Shown here: one piece after another, positions 1 through 42,228 of the stretch
Position numbering within the stretch: the first letter of the stretch is position 1
Layout of the letters: each line of letters opens with the position of its first letter
Sequence record: PP216085
Direction: 5' to 3' (one strand)
Origin: Escherichia phage vB_EcoM_HZ_ZJUN4
Length of the DNA: 64,000 nucleotides
Notes under the pieces: generated by a model
The model's database searches: none
The model's input: the letters and a program-made list of their open reading frames with translations, nothing else
What the model was told of the DNA's origin: nothing
Translations under genes and position numbers: made by a program

Positions 1-1566
1 AAAGGAATGCTTGAGAACGGGTTTAAGCTTGGTAATGCACAGATTGAAACCCCTAAATCAATCGGCGTTGCTACTGCAATTATGGCACAAATTACTGCAC
101 AGGTTGCTTCCCATCAATACGGTGGAACGACTTTTGCGAATGTAGATAAAGTCCTTTCTCCTTATGTTAAACGCACCTATGCAAAACATATTGAAGACGC
201 GGAAAAATGGCAAATCACTGATGCGTTGAATTATGCCCAATCTAAAACAGAAAAAGATGTATACGATGCGTTCCAAGCTTATGAATATGAAGTAAATACT
301 CTCTTTAGTTCAAACGGACAAACGCCTTTTGTAACAATTACATTTGGTACGGGAACTGACTGGACTGAACGAATGATTCAGAAAGCAATTCTGAAAAATC
401 GTATTAAAGGTCTTGGTCGTGACGGGATAACTCCTATTTTCCCTAAACTTGTTATGTTCGTTGAAGAAGGTGTTAATCTTTATAAAGACGATCCGAACTA
501 TGATATTAAGCAGCTTGCTCTAGAGTGTGCAAGCAAAAGAATGTATCCTGATATTATTTCAGCTAAGAACAATAAAGCTATCACCGGTTCATCTATTCCT
601 GTTTCTCCAATGGGTTGCCGTAGTTTCTTGAGCGTATGGAAAGATTCGACTGGTAATGAAATTCTTGATGGACGTAATAATCTTGGTGTTGTAACACTGA
701 ATCTTCCTCGCATTGCACTAGATTCTTATATTGGAACACAGTTCAATGAACAGAAATTTGCCGAATTGTTCAATGAGAGAATGGATTTATGTTTTGAAGC
801 ATTGATGTGTAGAATTAGTTCCTTAAAAGGAGTTAAAGCTACTGTTGCTCCTATTCTTTACCAAGAAGGTGCATTCGGGGTTCGTCTTAAACCTGATGAC
901 GATATAATTGAGTTATTTAAAAACGGTAGAAGTTCAGTGTCCCTAGGATACATTGGTATTCACGAATTGAATATTCTTGTCGGTCGTGATATTGGACAAG
1001 AAATTTTAACTAAAATGAATACTCATCTTAAGCAGTGGACTGAAAGAACCGGTTTTGCTTTTAGCTTGTATTCTACTCCTGCTGAAAACCTGTGCTATCG
1101 CTTCTGTAAACTTGATACTGAGAAATATGGAAGTGTAAAAGATGTTACTGATAAAGGATGGTACACTAATAGTTTCCATGTTTCAGTAGAAGAAAATATC
1201 ACTCCGTTTGAAAAGATTTCTCGTGAAGCACCATATCATTTCATTGCGACAGGTGGTCACATTTCTTATGTTGAACTTCCTGATATGAAAAATAACTTAA
1301 AAGGTCTTGAGGCTGTATGGGATTATGCTGCGCAACATTTAGATTATTTTGGCGTTAACATGCCAGTAGATAAATGTTTTACGTGTGGAAGTACCCATGA
1401 AATGACTCCTACTGAAAACGGATTTGTTTGTTCTATTTGTGGAGAAACTGATCCTAAAAAGATGAACACAATAAGAAGAACTTGTGGTTATTTGGGAAAT
1501 CCGAATGAACGCGGATTTAATCTTGGCAAAAATAAAGAAATCATGCATAGGGTTAAACACCAATGA
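1..1566 (+). CDS. nrdD: anaerobic ribonucleoside-triphosphate reductase NrdD, C-terminal ~520 codons (5' end upstream of window)
   Basis: ORF runs from window edge; C-terminal glycyl-radical motif RRTCGYLGN and Zn-ribbon CFTCGS..CSICGE; followed by nrdG as in T-even phages; no intron in visible part. Confidence 0.9.
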   Translation, partial: KGMLENGFKLGNAQIETPKSIGVATAIMAQITAQVASHQYGGTTFANVDKVLSPYVKRTYAKHIEDAEKWQITDALNYAQSKTEKDVYDAFQAYEYEVNTLFSSNGQTPFVTITFGTGTDWTERMIQKAILKNRIKGLGRDGITPIFPKLVMFVEEGVNLYKDDPNYDIKQLALECASKRMYPDIISAKNNKAITGSSIPVSPMGCRSFLSVWKDSTGNEILDGRNNLGVVTLNLPRIALDSYIGTQFNEQKFAELFNERMDLCFEALMCRISSLKGVKATVAPILYQEGAFGVRLKPDDDIIELFKNGRSSVSLGYIGIHELNILVGRDIGQEILTKMNTHLKQWTERTGFAFSLYSTPAENLCYRFCKLDTEKYGSVKDVTDKGWYTNSFHVSVEENITPFEKISREAPYHFIATGGHISYVELPDMKNNLKGLEAVWDYAAQHLDYFGVNMPVDKCFTCGSTHEMTPTENGFVCSICGETDPKKMNTIRRTCGYLGNPNERGFNLGKNKEIMHRVKHQ

Positions 1567-2402
1567 ATTACGATAGATTTTATCCCTGTGATTTTGTGAA
1601 TGATAAATTATCTTTAATATTTGAAGAAAATAATGATTTACTATTGTCATATGTTGATTTGATAACAAAAAATTATAATAATCCTAAAATAAAAGGAAAA
1701 ACGGAAGCACATCACGTGCTTCCCAAATCTATATTTCCCGAATATAAAACAGATAAATGGAATATTGTTAATTTGTCATATTATGACCACGCGTTAGCTC
1801 ATTACTATTTAGCTAAAACAAGTAATAGTAAAATGTGTTATGCCTTTCATAGAATGATAAACTCGAATACCGATAGATTTAATACAGATGAATTGGATGA
1901 AATTCTTAAATTGTATTCCAGTGAAAAGGAATTATTTCACCGCTCTATGTCAAAATTATCGAAAAATATATGGAAGGATGACGATTTTAGAAAAAGACAT
2001 AGAGAACTAACTAAGTTAGCAATGCAAAAACCTGAAGTTAGAAATAAAACTTTATTAAATTTGTCAAATGCAATGAAAACTGACGAAGTTAGAAATAAAA
2101 TTTCCAGGCTAACTAAGTTAGCAATGCAAAAACCTGAAGTAAAAGAAAAACATAGAAATTCATTGAGGTTGGCGTATGCAAATCCTGAGGTTATGAAAAG
2201 AAAACATCAACGTCTTCGAGAAAAATATACTCTTAATTTATTTGGCGCATATAAAGATGGTGTTCTTTTAAAAACATTTAATTATATACCAGACGCAGCA
2301 AAATATTTTAATATTTCTAGCAAAGGAAATATTTTAAAATGTTTAAATGGCGAACGTAAAAGTGTTGAAGGCTATAATTGGAAATATATAAATGAATTAT
2401 GA
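1563..2402 (+). CDS. HNH-family homing endonuclease-like protein (Mob-like)
   Basis: 279-aa ORF with HH..N..H core (EAHHVLPKS...NLSYYDHALAHYYL) resembling T4 Mob HNH proteins; ATGA overlap with nrdD stop; first 13 codons near-identical to nrdG start; internal repeated DNA-binding-like motifs. Confidence 0.65.
   Translation: MNYDRFYPCDFVNDKLSLIFEENNDLLLSYVDLITKNYNNPKIKGKTEAHHVLPKSIFPEYKTDKWNIVNLSYYDHALAHYYLAKTSNSKMCYAFHRMINSNTDRFNTDELDEILKLYSSEKELFHRSMSKLSKNIWKDDDFRKRHRELTKLAMQKPEVRNKTLLNLSNAMKTDEVRNKISRLTKLAMQKPEVKEKHRNSLRLAYANPEVMKRKHQRLREKYTLNLFGAYKDGVLLKTFNYIPDAAKYFNISSKGNILKCLNGERKSVEGYNWKYINEL
2007..2143 (+). repeat. direct repeat of ~34 bp (ctaactaagttagcaatgcaaaaacctgaagt) about 100 bp apart inside the HNH gene
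   Basis: Two near-identical copies starting at 2007 and 2109 encoding LTKLAMQKPEV; gaagttagaaataaa also recurs. Confidence 0.8.
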
Positions 2403-2862
2403 CAGAATATACCCGTGCTGCTTTGTGAATGGCCCTGGATGCAGGACCGTTCTTTTCGTTACAGGTTGTTTGCATAAATGTGAAGGGTGTTATAATAAAT
2501 CAACATGGAATGCTAGAAATGGCGTTCCATTCACTGGTGAAACACTGGAACAATTAATTAAATGTTTGAATAATGATTATATAGAAGGATTAACTATAAC
2601 TGGAGGAGACCCTCTTTATCCTGATAACCGAGATGTTGTTCATTGCATTGTTCAAACAGTAAAAAATCTTTATCCAAATAAAAGCATTTGGTTGTGGACA
2701 GGATATAAGTTTGAAGATATTAAACAACTAGAAATGCTTAAATATGTTGATGTTATTATTGATGGGAAGTATGAGAAAAATCTTCCGACCAAAAAGCTGT
2801 GGCGAGGTTCAGATAATCAGCGACTTTGGTCAAATACCGATGGGGTGTGGAAACATGATTAA
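2392..2862 (+). CDS. nrdG: anaerobic ribonucleotide reductase activating protein (radical SAM)
   Basis: 156 aa; radical-SAM cysteine motif CLHKCEGC; position after nrdD. Confidence 0.9.
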   Translation: MNYDRIYPCCFVNGPGCRTVLFVTGCLHKCEGCYNKSTWNARNGVPFTGETLEQLIKCLNNDYIEGLTITGGDPLYPDNRDVVHCIVQTVKNLYPNKSIWLWTGYKFEDIKQLEMLKYVDVIIDGKYEKNLPTKKLWRGSDNQRLWSNTDGVWKHD

Positions 2863-2952
2863 ACTGAATTATATTATTGATACTATAAATGATATGATTT
2901 TTCATTTTGGTCCAGAATTTTATTCGCAGTATAGTTTAGTACTTATCAATGC

Positions 2953-3192
2953 TTGGTTAATCAATTAAGGGTAAATATGTATAAATTTCGTAAAGGTTTA
3001 GCTGATTTTCTTACAACTGTAACGTTCTTTTTGTTTATGGCAGTTGGTGCTATTTTTCTTATTCCTTTTATTGCTATATTTTTCGTGATTAGTTTGATTT
3101 CTCCAGAAAAAGGACTGTCTTCTAGCGAGTTCAATGAACGCCTGGATAAAATTACTAATAAGCTGAATGCTGTTCTTGATAAAAAGGATTAA
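2953..3192 (+). CDS. hypothetical small membrane protein
   Basis: 79-aa ORF with long hydrophobic segment. Confidence 0.5.
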   Translation: MVNQLRVNMYKFRKGLADFLTTVTFFLFMAVGAIFLIPFIAIFFVISLISPEKGLSSSEFNERLDKITNKLNAVLDKKD

Positions 3193-3194
3193 TT

Positions 3195-3506
3195 ATGATT
3201 AGTTTTGAGCGGTATGTGGTAGAGAGTTGGAAAGGTTTTGATATGTTCGGTAATGACTATTATTTTTACGAATGTAATCTAAATCCTAGTTTTTGGGCTG
3301 GACGTGAACGAGATCTCGAAGAAATTAATGCTCGTGCCGAATTGTTAGGTGAACTACCTACGGTTTATTTTACCTTTGATGCATCTGGATTTGTTATCCA
3401 GGTTTATTTTCCTGAAGAAAACTCTGGTGAGGATTCTGTTAACCCGCCATACTGGGCTTATCAAGGAATTATTTCTCGTGGAACAAAACTCGAACTTAAA
3501 GAATAA
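3195..3506 (+). CDS. hypothetical protein
   Basis: 103-aa ORF, protein-like composition, tightly packed with neighbours. Confidence 0.5.
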   Translation: MISFERYVVESWKGFDMFGNDYYFYECNLNPSFWAGRERDLEEINARAELLGELPTVYFTFDASGFVIQVYFPEENSGEDSVNPPYWAYQGIISRGTKLELKE

Positions 3507-3801
3507 GATTGAAGTCTATGGAATTCCAGATGAAGTAGGTCGTTGTCCTGGATGTCAATCAGTTACAAAACTTCTAAAGGAGCTCAATGCTCCTTTTACT
3601 TTCTATAAAGTTCTTACAAATAATGGTAAGATCGAGTATGATCGTCCATTGATTGTATCTCTTGCTAAACGCGCTGGATTCACATCTCTTAACATTCGTT
3701 ATCCAGTCATTTTCATCAATGATTCTAGACAAAAGAACATTAAACACTTCAAAGAAACTCTCATTTCACTTGGATATGATAGAGATATCATAGAAGACTA
3801 A
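3478..3801 (+). CDS. nrdH: glutaredoxin-like protein (NrdH-like); start codon uncertain (GTG 3478 proposed, ATT 3508 possible)
   Basis: IEVYGIPDEVGRCPGCQS thioredoxin-fold CxxC motif; no in-frame ATG upstream of the motif outside the overlapping upstream ORF; AAGGAA 9 nt before GTG 3478. Confidence 0.5.
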   Translation: MEQNSNLKNKIEVYGIPDEVGRCPGCQSVTKLLKELNAPFTFYKVLTNNGKIEYDRPLIVSLAKRAGFTSLNIRYPVIFINDSRQKNIKHFKETLISLGYDRDIIED

Positions 3802-39341: not shown

Positions 39342-39368
39342 ATTCCCGAAACCAAACGAGGATAAGTG

Positions 39369-40919
39369 ATGATTAAGAATGAAATTAAAATTCTAAGCGA
39401 TATTGAACATATCAAAAAGCGTAGCGGCATGTATATTGGCTCTTCTGCTAATGAAATGCATGAGCGCTTTCTGTTTGGTAAATGGGAAAGTGTTCAGTAT
39501 GTACCTGGTCTTGTTAAGCTTATTGATGAAATTATCGATAACTCAGTAGATGAAGGTATTCGTACTAAGTTTAAATTCGCAAATAAAATTAATGTTACTA
39601 TTAAAAACAATCAAGTAACAGTTGAAGATAACGGTCGTGGTATTCCACAAGCGATGGTTAAAACACCTACCGGTGAAGAAATTCCTGGTCCTGTTGCTGC
39701 ATGGACTATTCCAAAAGCAGGCGGTAACTTTGGTGATGATAAAGAACGCGTCACTGGCGGTATGAACGGTGTTGGTTCTAGTTTAACTAACATTTTTTCT
39801 GTGATGTTTGTCGGTGAAACTGGCGACGGTCAAAATAATATTGTAGTTCGTTGTTCAAATGGCATGGAAAATAAATCATGGGAAACTATTCCTGGAAAAT
39901 GGAAAGGAACTCGCGTTACTTTCATTCCTGATTTTATGTCATTTGAAACTAATGAGCTATCTCAAGTTTATCTTGACATTACACTAGATCGTCTCCAGAC
40001 ACTTGCAGTAGTTTATCCTGATATTCAATTTACCTTTAATGGTAAAAAGGTTCAGGGTAATTTTAAGAAATATGCACGCCAATATGATGAACACGCTATC
40101 GTTCAAGAACAAGAAAATTGTTCTATTGCGGTTGGTCGTTCACCCGATGGTTTTCGTCAATTAACATACGTCAATAACATTCATACTAAGAATGGTGGCC
40201 ATCACATTGACTGCGTTATGGATGATATTTGTGAAGACCTTATTCCACAAATCAAACGTAAGTTCAAAATTGACGTAACTAAAGCACGTGTTAAAGAATG
40301 TTTGACTATCGTTATGTTTGTTCGTGATATGAAAAACATGCGATTTGATTCTCAAACTAAAGAGCGTCTGACTTCTCCATTTGGTGAAATCCGTAGTCAT
40401 ATTCAGCTTGATGCTAAAAAGATTTCACGTGCTATTTTGAATAATGAAGCAATTTTAATGCCAATCATTGAAGCTGCCTTGGCTCGTAAATTGGCGGCAG
40501 AAAAAGCAGCAGAAACTAAAGCAGCTAAAAAGGCTTCTAAAGCTAAGGTTCATAAACATATTAAAGCGAATCTTTGCGGTAAAGATGCTGATACTACTCT
40601 TTTCTTGACTGAGGGTGATTCTGCTATCGGATATCTTATTGATGTTCGTGATAAAGAACTTCATGGTGGTTATCCATTGCGTGGTAAAGTTCTTAACAGT
40701 TGGGGTATGTCATATGCTGATATGCTTAAAAATAAAGAACTGTTTGATATTTGCGCAATCACTGGATTAGTTCTTGGTGAAAAGGCGTTTGAAGAAAAAG
40801 AAGATGGCGAGTGGTTTACTTTCGAACTAAATGGCGATACAATTATCGTAAATGAAAATGATGAAGTACAGATTAATGGTAAATGGATAACAGTAGGTGA
40901 ATTACGAAAAAATCTATAA
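39369..40919 (+). CDS. 39: DNA topoisomerase II large subunit gp39 (GyrB-like ATPase), N-terminal part of split gene
   Basis: 516 aa from ATG 39369; GHKL ATPase motifs (NSVDEG, GRGIP, GGMNGVGSS). Confidence 0.9.
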   Translation: MIKNEIKILSDIEHIKKRSGMYIGSSANEMHERFLFGKWESVQYVPGLVKLIDEIIDNSVDEGIRTKFKFANKINVTIKNNQVTVEDNGRGIPQAMVKTPTGEEIPGPVAAWTIPKAGGNFGDDKERVTGGMNGVGSSLTNIFSVMFVGETGDGQNNIVVRCSNGMENKSWETIPGKWKGTRVTFIPDFMSFETNELSQVYLDITLDRLQTLAVVYPDIQFTFNGKKVQGNFKKYARQYDEHAIVQEQENCSIAVGRSPDGFRQLTYVNNIHTKNGGHHIDCVMDDICEDLIPQIKRKFKIDVTKARVKECLTIVMFVRDMKNMRFDSQTKERLTSPFGEIRSHIQLDAKKISRAILNNEAILMPIIEAALARKLAAEKAAETKAAKKASKAKVHKHIKANLCGKDADTTLFLTEGDSAIGYLIDVRDKELHGGYPLRGKVLNSWGMSYADMLKNKELFDICAITGLVLGEKAFEEKEDGEWFTFELNGDTIIVNENDEVQINGKWITVGELRKNL

Positions 40920-41715
40920 TGACTTAATAGTGCGGGGTAAAACCCGCGTTTCTAAATTTAAGGGTGAAATTCATCATATCCTTCCAAGATCAATGGGAGG
41001 TTCTGATGATAAAGAAAATTTGGTGAAACTGACTTTTCGTGAACATTTTTTAGCACATTTTCTACTATATAAAATTCATCGTAATCGTGAAATGGCATAT
41101 GCGATGAATAGAATGTTAAACACTGAAAAATATTTACGTTCTAGTAAATTATATGAAATTACTAGAATTTACCATCAAAGAGCAGTATCTGAATGGTCAA
41201 AAAACTTTATGAAAGATAAAGTTTTAATGAGAAGTATTAAATCGGGTAAATGCGCCTTATTAATTAAAGGATCATTTAACCCAAAGGAATGGTGCGGTGT
41301 TAATAAAGGTGTTAAGCTTCCTGGAATTAAAGGCATGACATGCTTTAAAAATGAAAAAGGCGAAGTTTTTCGTCTTCATGTTAATGATCCACGCATTAAA
41401 GCTGAAAAATTAGTTGGTATTGGAAATACTGTTGCTGCTACTGCAAAAGCAGCTGAACTTGAAAAAGCGAAACCATGGTATAATAAATCAGCGACAAATC
41501 CAGAGGCTGTAAAATTAATACCAAATTTATATGAATGGTACGTCACGAAATATGACCCCGATCATTATAAACGAACGGGAGTTGCTAAATGGAAATCAGT
41601 TAATAATATAACTGTGAATTCAAAATTATTCGGCCGAGCATTTAATGAATTTAAACGCGGTTGGATTCCTGATGAAAAGTTCTATGAGGTGTATAATGAA
41701 ATTTGTAAAAATTGA
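40897..41715 (+). CDS. mobA: HNH homing endonuclease (MobA-like) between genes 39 and 60
   Basis: 272 aa; EIHHILPRSMGGSDDKENLVKLTFREHFLAHF HNH core; overlaps 39 end and 60 start. Confidence 0.7.
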   Translation: MNYEKIYNDLIVRGKTRVSKFKGEIHHILPRSMGGSDDKENLVKLTFREHFLAHFLLYKIHRNREMAYAMNRMLNTEKYLRSSKLYEITRIYHQRAVSEWSKNFMKDKVLMRSIKSGKCALLIKGSFNPKEWCGVNKGVKLPGIKGMTCFKNEKGEVFRLHVNDPRIKAEKLVGIGNTVAATAKAAELEKAKPWYNKSATNPEAVKLIPNLYEWYVTKYDPDHYKRTGVAKWKSVNNITVNSKLFGRAFNEFKRGWIPDEKFYEVYNEICKN

Positions 41716-41833
41716 TTCTTCTAGCGTTGATATGAAAAAATATAAATTGCAGAACAATGTTCGTCGTTCTATTAAATCCTCTTCAATGAACTATGCGAAT
41801 GTCGCTATTATGACAGACGCAGATCACGATGGA
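41696..41833 (+). CDS. 60: topoisomerase II subunit gp60, codons 1-46 (pre-bypass)
   Basis: MKFVKIDSSSVDMKKYKLQNNVRRSIKSSSMNYANVAIMTDADHDG ends at take-off GGA followed by TAG. Confidence 0.9.
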
Positions 41834-41883
41834 TAGCCTTCGGGCTATCTATAGAAATACCTCATAATTAAGAGATTATTGGA
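41834..41883 (+). promoter_or_regulatory. 60: gene 60 translational bypass coding gap (50 nt): UAG stop plus take-off stem-loop tagccttcgggctatct, ending at landing GGA 41881-41883
   Basis: Sequence GAT GGA TAG CCTTCGGGCTATCTATAGAAATACCTCATAATTAAGAGATTATT GGA TTA GGT matches the T4 gene 60 hop element as I recall it. Confidence 0.9.
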
Positions 41884-42228
41884 TTAGGTTCTATTTATCC
41901 TTCTCTGCTCGGATTTTTTAGTAATTGGCCAGAATTGTTTGAACAAGGAAGAATTCGCTTTGTCAAAACTCCTGTAATCATCGCTCAGGTCGGTAAAAAA
42001 CAAGAATGGTTTTATACAGTCGCTGAATATGAGAGTGCCAAAGATGCTCTACCTAAACATAGCATCCGTTATATTAAAGGACTTGGCTCTTTGGAAAAAT
42101 CTGAATATCGTGAGATGATTCAAAACCCAGTATATGATGTTGTTAAACTTCCTGAGAACTGGAAAGAGCTTTTTGAAATGCTCATGGGAGATAATGCTGA
42201 CCTTCGTAAAGAATGGATGAGCCAGTAG
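41884..42228 (+). CDS. 60: gp60 post-bypass segment (LGSIYPSLLGFFSNW...)
   Basis: In-frame continuation after landing codon; track lists only 41935-42228 from an internal Met. Confidence 0.88.
   Translation, partial: LGSIYPSLLGFFSNWPELFEQGRIRFVKTPVIIAQVGKKQEWFYTVAEYESAKDALPKHSIRYIKGLGSLEKSEYREMIQNPVYDVVKLPENWKELFEMLMGDNADLRKEWMSQ

Follow-up and report, generated by a model that had tools for sequence, protein, structure and literature searches.

A putative homing endonuclease cassette in the 5' end of nrdG of Escherichia phage vB_EcoM_HZ_ZJUN4, with an apparently captured start and a portable replacement

The window analysed here is a stretch of 64,000 nucleotides from Escherichia phage vB_EcoM_HZ_ZJUN4 (sequence record PP216085). 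The subject is an open reading frame (ORF) of 279 aa for an HNH homing endonuclease, which lies between nrdD and nrdG, the genes for the large subunit and the activase of the anaerobic ribonucleotide reductase (RNR). Comparison with endonuclease-free relatives indicates that an 829-bp cassette (1603–2431) sits inside nrdG directly behind nucleotide 40, the first base of codon 14. In the sequence comparison, the HNH ORF is joined in frame to the ATG and the first 13 codons of the host nrdG and inherits the overlap of this ATG with the nrdD stop codon. Full-length NrdG is still encoded, via a replacement start at the 3' end of the cassette. HNH body and replacement start cross genera together, and the left copy of the nrdG start is that of the recipient.

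Insertion point and the two nrdG starts

The features that define the locus are as follows.

7–1566, + strand: 3' part of nrdD (anaerobic RNR large subunit; Pfam NRDD E=2.3e-148, Gly_radical E=8.8e-26); the gene extends past the left end of the window
1563–1602, + strand: left copy, i.e. the resident nrdG start (ATG, codons 2–13 and the first base of codon 14), from the empty-site comparison
1563–2402, + strand: HNH homing-endonuclease ORF, 279 aa (ORF list, ATG scan, PHROG)
1603–2431, + strand: apparent inserted cassette, 829 bp, with an HNH body without its own start codon and then a surrogate nrdG 5' end (junction alignments, two genera)
2392–2431, + strand: right copy, the cassette-borne surrogate nrdG start (MNYDRIYPCCFVN), from divergence and cross-genus comparison
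2392–2862, + strand: nrdG (anaerobic RNR activase), 156 aa, full length, with surrogate codons 1–13 and the resident remainder (Pfam Fer4_12 E=3.4e-48, Radical_SAM E=5e-7)
2432–2448, + strand: short cassette-linked tract in Escherichia-type phages (comparison of single-nucleotide polymorphisms, SNPs, between occupied and empty sites)

The original prediction, made from this sequence, was that the first 13 codons of the HNH ORF duplicate the nrdG start with roughly 31 of 41 identical nucleotides. At an offset of 829 nt, positions 1563–1603 and 2392–2432 agree at 30 of 41 nucleotides and in 11 of 13 codons at the amino acid level, and the 40-nt flanks match at chance (14/40 upstream, 11/40 downstream). 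An independent repeat search aligned 1562–1602 with 2391–2431 at 76%, which is the predicted 31 of 41. Among the 729 same-strand ORF-start pairs within 3 kb of each other in the window (mean 14.1 matches, standard deviation 3.2), the HNH/nrdG pair was the top outlier with 30 matches; the runner-up had 24. The binomial P was 1.2e-7, or ~9e-5 after correction for all pairs.

The two ends of the HNH ORF overlap the neighbouring genes. Read directly in the sequence, the ATG at 1563 overlaps the nrdD stop codon (TGA at 1564–1566, together ATGA), also as predicted, and the left copy now forms the first 13 codons of the HNH ORF. The TGA of the HNH ORF (2400–2402) lies within the surrogate nrdG copy and is formed by nucleotides 9–11 of that copy, giving an 11-nt overlap with the nrdG start. 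The T4-like (Tequatrovirus-type) segment has the order nrdD, HNH ORF, nrdG, 55.x genes, nrdH and gene 55 on the + strand. A further stretch of 30 nt inside the HNH ORF (1865–1894) matches the left copy at 73% identity (NTDRFNTDEL vs NYDRFYPCDF). This likeness is probably due to chance; the region is conserved family sequence that is also found in homologues at other loci.

The region is matched by 765 records of the phage collection, of which only 21 contain the ORF in this setting. For most other records, the match spans 871 bp against 1700 bp, meaning that exactly 829 bp are absent. All in all, ~744 uninterrupted nrdD-nrdG junctions were found against 31 occupied records, with empty sites in several genera. 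IMG/VR viral contigs yielded empty sites only and no occupied site. The cassette is therefore present or absent at one precise site among close relatives, as is typical of a homing endonuclease gene.

In T2, VIPECOOM03, EcNP1, ESh15, SP18 and seven metagenomic contigs, the empty-site nrdG begins with ATGAATTAYGATAGATTTTATCCYTGCGATTTTGTGAATG and continues across the junction with GCCC (MNYDRFYPCDFVNG). In the window, the left copy is followed at the same point by ATAAATTATCT, which runs on into HNH-specific sequence. The boundaries were identical in all 13 occupied junctions read. The left copy agrees with the empty-site nrdG start at 39 of 40 nucleotides in VIPECOOM03 and EcNP1, and at 40 of 40 for some pairs of occupied and empty genomes. 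It also carries the same silent polymorphisms that segregate among the empty sites. Because the empty-site nrdG start is the left copy, the insert would be 1603–2431 and the left copy the recipient's own nrdG start. The prediction of a homing endonuclease gene inside the nrdG start, using its initiation region, was thus borne out by relatives that lack exactly 829 bp. The proposed alignment with endonuclease-free phages placed the insertion after nucleotide 40 of nrdG, and these phages did not have the different nrdG 5' end that would have contradicted the prediction.

The divergence between occupied and empty genomes was unevenly distributed. For the left copy the mean was 5.1%, which is background level, with ~4–5% in other segments and 6.5% in nucleotides 41–140 of nrdG. 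For the right copy it was 21.9% (a minimum of 17.5%). Among the occupied genomes themselves, the HNH body had a diversity of 1.7% and the flanks 3.7–5.2%. In a comparison of nine occupied with 12 empty genomes, flanking SNPs associated with occupancy were found at +2, +15 and +16 only, none upstream and none past ~+40. These lie in the tract 2432–2448, where codon 19 (2446–2448) is ACC (Thr) instead of GTC (Val). In BF15 (L019, 901–1741), the length of the HNH gene differs by 1 nt, and the deposited coding sequence begins 154 nt further downstream; a frameshift may have inactivated this copy, or a sequencing error may lie behind the difference.

Compared with the left copy, the right copy has five silent codon changes plus Phe6Ile and Asp10Cys within 13 codons (Asp10 is GAT at 1590–1592, Cys10 is TGC at 2419–2421). 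The longest exact runs shared by the two copies are 8 nt (ATGAATTA) and 10 nt (TTTGTGAATG). In 83 diverse NrdG representatives, position 10 is Asp in 60 and Cys in one.

The cassette in Klebsiella phages and parallel cases

Klebsiella phages of the genus Jiaodavirus carry the HNH gene at ~85% identity. Upstream of their nrdG lies a small MazG-like ORF instead of nrdD, so the target appears to be codon 14 of nrdG and not the nrdD/nrdG boundary. Their empty sites begin with ATGAATTTCGACAGAATCTACCCTTCTGACTTTGTGAATG, followed across the junction by GCCC (MNFDRIYPSDFVNG). In occupied genomes the HNH ORF starts with the resident nrdG 40-mer (40/40 in Roth19 and 39/40 in UTI-K1, with one synonymous change). 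The working nrdG begins with MNYDRIYPCCFVN, as in the window, and resident sequence resumes right after the junction. The left copy thus varies with the host genus, being MNYDRFYPCDFVN in Escherichia phages and MNFDRIYPSDFVN in Klebsiella phages, and the right-copy peptide is the same in both genera, though the resident nrdG starts differ. Since the same layout recurs with a different resident start, the left copy seems to follow the host and the right copy the cassette.

Between the window and Roth19, identity was 85.0% for the HNH body, 87.5% for the right copy, 80.0% for the left copy and 67.5% for the nrdG body. The resident 40-mers of T2 and of a Jiaodavirus empty site were 77.5% identical. 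The cassette, including its right copy, is far more conserved than the host gene (85–87.5% vs 67.5%), which indicates horizontal transfer. Identity between genera and diversity within the genus both follow the pattern of horizontal spread expected of a homing endonuclease gene. In UTI-K1 (L009, 1201–2037), the HNH ORF is labelled in GenBank as a second 'ribonucleotide reductase activating protein', and this mislabelling was probably caused by the 13 captured NrdG codons.

The right-copy 40-mer also occurs without the HNH gene. In T6 it lies 3' of the unrelated GIY-YIG gene segH (38/40), with the similarity beginning exactly at the ATG, and in PD112 it lies behind a deletion remnant of segH (39/40). 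In ESh24 (L030), U5 (L031, AY262145) and ERS-1 (L032), the 40-mer stands alone, directly after a normal nrdD 3' end (40/40); these are the only three of ~744 uninterrupted junctions with the right-copy allele. Either recombination at ATGAATTA removed the HNH gene from these genomes, or they are related to the source lineage. T2-like sequence directly follows the module in ERS-1 and PD112. Thr19 was also found in two ordinary empty sites (L011 and L016). In PD112 (L028, 966–1197), segH is down to a ~230-bp remnant in which the 5' and 3' ends are joined. This genome keeps both the diverged 3' end of nrdD and the nrdG start with Cys10, and the arrangement resembles a decaying endonuclease gene.

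Because the right copy encodes the same peptide in two genera and also occurs behind segH and alone, it is best read as a module carried by the cassette. The original prediction had the insertion regenerate a diverged nrdG 5' end downstream. The second nrdG start is indeed present at the 3' side; its origin as a locally regenerated duplicate that later diverged does not fit. Resistance to self-cleavage through the substitutions is plausible given the rarity of Cys at NrdG position 10. Selection against deletion between direct repeats would account for the recoding equally well.

T4 mobC provides a parallel case. A Megablast search with T4 mobC returned 32 records, Klebsiella phages included, and all were at least 99% identical to it. 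At 100% nucleotide identity, mobC was found in the Klebsiella (Jiaodavirus-type) phage vB_KpnM_Wolf_ER13 (PP738762; L033, 880–1972) and also in Boboto (OK499997). Such identity implies a very recent transfer across genera, or recombination in the laboratory or in sewage. In Wolf_ER13, the MobC ORF begins with MNFDRIY, which are the resident Jiaodavirus nrdG codons, and continues with the T4-identical body. After mobC follows a T4-type nrdG 5' end that grades into resident sequence after ~100–150 nt.

MobC relatives at unrelated loci also begin with MNYxKIY. The N-terminus of T4 MobC therefore appears to be intrinsic to the MobC family, and an origin of its MNYDRIY solely by capture from nrdG is ruled out. 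Its resemblance to NrdG would thus provide a ready-made left homology arm. At the Wolf_ER13 junction, the first MobC codons were nevertheless exchanged with the recipient nrdG.

A further case is a MobC-family HNH gene inside a gp15-like gene on a 173-kb metagenomic T4-like contig (L034, 2468–3125; Logan SRR27217541). Here, the resident start (MEARYEYFYDG) stays upstream as a mini-ORF, and the cassette brings a new start (MTYEFFYDGQ) with its own Shine-Dalgarno sequence; nearly every wobble base differs. The empty site in a 96%-identical contig (L038, 1495–1523) confirms the insertion. Among 28 distant metagenomic homologues, a search for a peptide common to the HNH start region and the downstream gene start gave no clear new case. 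One contig was borderline at about the 99th percentile of the null (L049, Ga0222628_1008636; LSTGVSIKFI vs LSTGVSVKAI). On this contig, an 8-codon segment with differing wobble positions (~120–180 and 1224–1290) flanks a distant HNH homologue beside a helicase-like ORF. The architecture appears to be recurrent in the family, not universal.

The HNH protein, proposed mechanism and alternative explanations

Three regions of the HNH ORF stand out.

1701–1814, + strand: predicted HNH catalytic core, residues 47–84, EAHHVLPKS...WNIVNLSYYDHALAHYYLA (family alignment, hhalign, AlphaFold2 model)
2007–2154, + strand: internal direct repeats that encode LTKLAMQKPEV-type (NUMOD3-like) DNA-binding repeats (repeat search)
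2265–2378, + strand: C-terminal NUMOD1 / I-HmuI-like helix-turn-helix region, residues ~235–272, with weak Pfam matches

H50, H51, N67, H76 and H80 were invariant in a 7-sequence family alignment. The motif residues align residue for residue with T4 MobC (ELHHIIPRS...DNLVFLTYKAHYTAHH), giving the His-His...Asn...His pattern. In hhalign, the family alignment matched the MobC family with a probability of 99.5% (E=1.9e-22), and nine of 11 members of the MobC family match Pfam HNH (PF01844). The 279-aa protein itself matched phrog_655 'homing endonuclease' (E=1.6e-36) and phrog_12434 'HNH endonuclease' (E=3.4e-15). The AlphaFold2 model had a mean predicted local distance difference test score (pLDDT) of 74.8, with 86–91 over residues 51–90, and placed two strands (47–51 and 68–72) and a helix (73–84) on the motif, i.e. 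a beta-beta-alpha arrangement. Through the profile-profile comparison and the PHROG matches, membership in the HNH superfamily is well supported but indirect.

The C-terminal region matched Pfam PF22083 (E=2.4e-4, 21.1 bits against a cutoff of 27 bits) and PF07453 (E=5.6e-3). The internal repeats have a period of 102 nt with 51-nt sub-repeats. A natural variant of 242 aa (P0003) is without one internal repeat unit, presumably lost via recombination between the repeats. The idea that SegH and the HNH protein of the window share a DNA-binding domain was dropped, as their comparison showed no significant similarity. Screening of metagenomes with the single protein yielded no relative.

No ATG lies in frame between codons 1 and 91, and the two catalytic His residues are at positions 50 and 51. 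The enzyme therefore depends on the captured nrdG ATG. Homologues at other loci (P0004–P0008) have their own unrelated N-termini, and homology to them starts at about residue 14. The MobC-type N-terminal motif aligns to residues 29–35 of the window protein, not to residues 1–13. A promoter and terminator scan of 1200–3300 gave no signal above shuffled controls. An Rfam scan of 1–3600 (E<=1) for a group I intron or structured RNA gave a single chance match below threshold (24 bits against a gathering score of 60).

We consider it highly probable that the structural model is right, i.e. start capture, surrogate start and joint travel of HNH body and surrogate, and that the cassette is or recently was mobile. 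The enzyme would cut or nick an endonuclease-free nrdG near codon 14. During co-infection, the break would be repaired from the occupied genome, and the cassette would be copied in. The recoded replacement start may then block re-cleavage, suppress cassette-deleting recombination between the repeats, or both. The overlap of nrdD stop and ATG normally couples nrdG translation to nrdD. With the cassette in place, translation of the HNH gene would be coupled to nrdD (or to the MazG-like ORF), and that of NrdG to the HNH ORF via the 11-nt overlap.

Individual parts of this mechanism carry different weight. Because recipient sequence is kept up to the junction on both sides, the break may have occurred at or very near the insertion point; we give a break at the junction itself about even chances. 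Free-standing phage homing endonuclease genes are usually described as intergenic, with enzymes that cut at a distance. A junction-proximal break would resemble intron-encoded homing enzymes more closely than the typical distant-cutting free-standing T4 enzymes. That the substitutions in the right copy confer immunity is conceivable, at somewhat less than even chances.

Several points weigh against the reading of a mobile cassette with a recoded, protected start. In the Klebsiella phages, occupied and empty alleles do not differ at all between -10 and beyond +20 around the junction. With a short recognition site, the occupied Klebsiella-phage allele would not be immune. SegH, on the evidence reportedly given in the 2005 abstract by Sandegren and colleagues, also cuts its own genome. 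Base-by-base reading covered 13 occupied and 15 empty junctions, and the others were assigned from BLAST identity bands. Structure alone cannot separate an insertion from a precise deletion, and recombination at the shared TTTGTGAATG would turn an occupied site back into an 'empty' resident allele. Loss of the HNH body may have occurred in the three genomes with orphan modules. The 279-aa protein had no direct match to the Pfam HNH models even at E<=10, and searches of PDB sequences, both with the single protein and with the profile of the family, brought no meaningful match. A Foldseek search of the AlphaFold2 model against PDB had no match at E<=0.001, probably due to an elongated multi-helix model with a very small catalytic core. 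T4 mobC, finally, is listed as 'activity not determined, target unknown' (PMC2988022).

The resemblance of the two starts could reflect chance, or no more than a common context of translation initiation. Both starts lie in AT-rich sequence, and NrdG and MobC-family HNH proteins both tend to begin with MNY. This explanation has a negligible probability given the empirical and binomial statistics of the ORF-start pairs. Moreover, the similarity covers 13 codons and ends exactly at the insertion boundary, and the empty-site alignments, which account for every base, already refute it. A local target-site duplication, in which 40 nt of the recipient's nrdG were duplicated and the downstream copy diverged in place, would fit direct repeats that exactly flank the insert and both end in the 10 nt TTTGTGAATG. 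It is very improbable all the same. The right copy differs little between two genera whose resident starts differ by ~20%, and its divergence keeps pace with that of the HNH body, not with that of the host (87.5% vs 67.5–77.5%). Its divergence from local alleles is also ~5 times that of any neighbouring segment, and the module recurs behind the unrelated segH and alone.

If the occupied state were ancestral and inherited vertically, empty sites would stem from repeated precise deletion and the cassette would be a decaying relic, not an active mobile element. Deletion between repeats is mechanistically easy in T4-type phages, ESh24, U5 and ERS-1 resemble deletion products that retained the right copy, and BF15 and PD112 show a frameshifted HNH gene and a deleted segH, respectively. 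The numbers (~744 empty vs 31 occupied, with empty sites across several genera), the identity between genera (85% for the cassette vs 67.5% for the host gene) and the diversity within the genus (1.7% vs 3.7–5.2% in the flanks) make this improbable. The empty sites share Asp10 with diverse NrdG proteins of cells and phages, and T4-type mobC, at 100% identity, was recently transferred between genera with junctions that follow the same principle. The right copy might also be the natural nrdG allele of the lineage in which the cassette originated (U5-like), i.e. a linked passenger without a selected role in immunity or repeat stability. This would agree with the three endonuclease-free genomes that carry the right-copy allele directly after nrdD, and with Thr19 in L011 and L016. 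It is unlikely, though less so than ancestral occupancy: the excess divergence is limited to exactly the 40 duplicated nucleotides and is near background right after them, and in ERS-1 and PD112 the module is directly followed by T2-like sequence. Almost all silent sites differ while the peptide is kept, the same wobble-only recoding as in the gp15-like case, and Cys at position 10 is rare (1/83).

A wider interpretation joins these observations, and as a whole we regard it as doubtful. In it, start capture with a portable 5' end would be a general third way besides introns and inteins, and the recoded module (Asp10Cys, Val19Thr) a shared immunity allele against the HNH enzyme and SegH. The nrdG start would then be an arena of rival elements that swap behind one resistant target, with U5, ESh24 and ERS-1 as immune empty sites.

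Comparison with known systems

The nrdD-nrdG locus is a known hotspot for mobC and segH (PMC2988022), and genes of the window type are already annotated as putative homing endonucleases, in Yersinia phage PST as 'mobC'. No paper covered by our literature search describes, for any phage endonuclease cassette, the capture of the target gene's start together with a replacement 5' end; Sandegren et al. 2005 was outside its coverage, and a prior mention there is possible.

The window gene and T4 mobC share the nrdD-nrdG locus, the HNH superfamily and the PHROG. T4 mobC also has an ATG that overlaps the nrdD stop and a 3' end that overlaps the nrdG start by 11 nt, and in a Klebsiella phage it starts with the recipient's nrdG codons and brings its own nrdG 5' end. 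The two proteins are nevertheless alike only in the HNH core (38% identity over 60 residues, 23/60). T4 MobC has 210 aa against 279 in the window, and the C-terminal halves are unlike. An orthologous relationship was ruled out, as there is no full-length similarity and the Megablast matches were all at least 99% identical to T4 mobC. The insertion points also differ (codon 7 for T4 mobC, codon 14 for the window cassette). T4 MobC has an intrinsic N-terminus, with a left junction that is a 7-codon coincidence of homology, whereas the window gene lost its own start and relies on 13 captured nrdG codons.

The gene for SegH of T6, a free-standing homing endonuclease of the GIY-YIG family, is described as taking the place of mobC (Sandegren, Nord & Sjoberg 2005, as cited in PMC2988022). 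The segH gene shares the nrdD-nrdG site (71 records) and the Cys10/Thr19 nrdG 5' module behind it. It differs in that the protein is unrelated and the gene has its own intergenic spacers and start, no left nrdG copy and a diverged nrdD 3' end.

HNH genes inserted in phage coding sequence are described for mobE in nrdA of Aeromonas phage Aeh1 (Friedrich et al. 2007) and for T4 mobA between genes 39 and 60, as covered in PMC8351571, PMC3045599 and bioRxiv 10.1101/2022.08.31.505936. As in the window, the HNH gene lies within coding sequence without an intron or intein, and the host function is kept. The difference is that the host protein is split there into two reassembling polypeptides, whereas NrdG stays in one piece. 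The window cassette instead replaces the first 13 nrdG codons, and the orphaned codons become a leader of the endonuclease. The window itself holds the known gene 39 / mobA / gene 60 arrangement of the T4 type (39366–42228), in which a GTG-start HNH ORF in the mobA position (40897–41715, MNYEKIYNDLI...) separates the topoisomerase subunit genes.

Homing endonuclease genes of fungal mitochondria include in-frame host fusions (rps3-LAGLIDADG) and partial duplications of atp6 and cox1 (PMC7902536, PMC7487136, PMC8393795). The likeness lies in an endonuclease ORF fused in frame to a host ORF with a duplicated piece of the host gene alongside; the families (LAGLIDADG and GIY-YIG) and the organelle genomes are different. 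It is usually the 3' end of the host gene that is duplicated in these cases, compared with the 5' end and start codon in the window cassette. The displaced rps3 3' ends that Sethuraman and colleagues dealt with in 2009 are said to be duplicated. Prophages in tRNA genes or icd likewise carry a diverged replacement of the interrupted gene end, and the gene stays intact. They use site-specific integrases at att sites, replace 3' ends and do not involve endonuclease-driven gene conversion.

Against this background, the cassette would combine an intron-like boundary precision inside an ORF with the absence of splicing. Start capture would explain how a cassette without promoter, ribosome-binding site or start codon is expressed, and illustrates how the expression of such elements can be linked to that of a host gene. 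It also gives a specific predicted target for a member of an enzyme family whose target is listed as unknown. As regards annotation, residues 1–13 of this 'homing endonuclease' come from NrdG. The 40-nt module behind two unrelated endonucleases, together with three orphan modules, offers a natural system for the invasion, immunity and loss of selfish genes. Compared with introns, inteins and split genes, an element that takes the translation start of its host and repays it with a recoded copy would represent a different way to spare the host.

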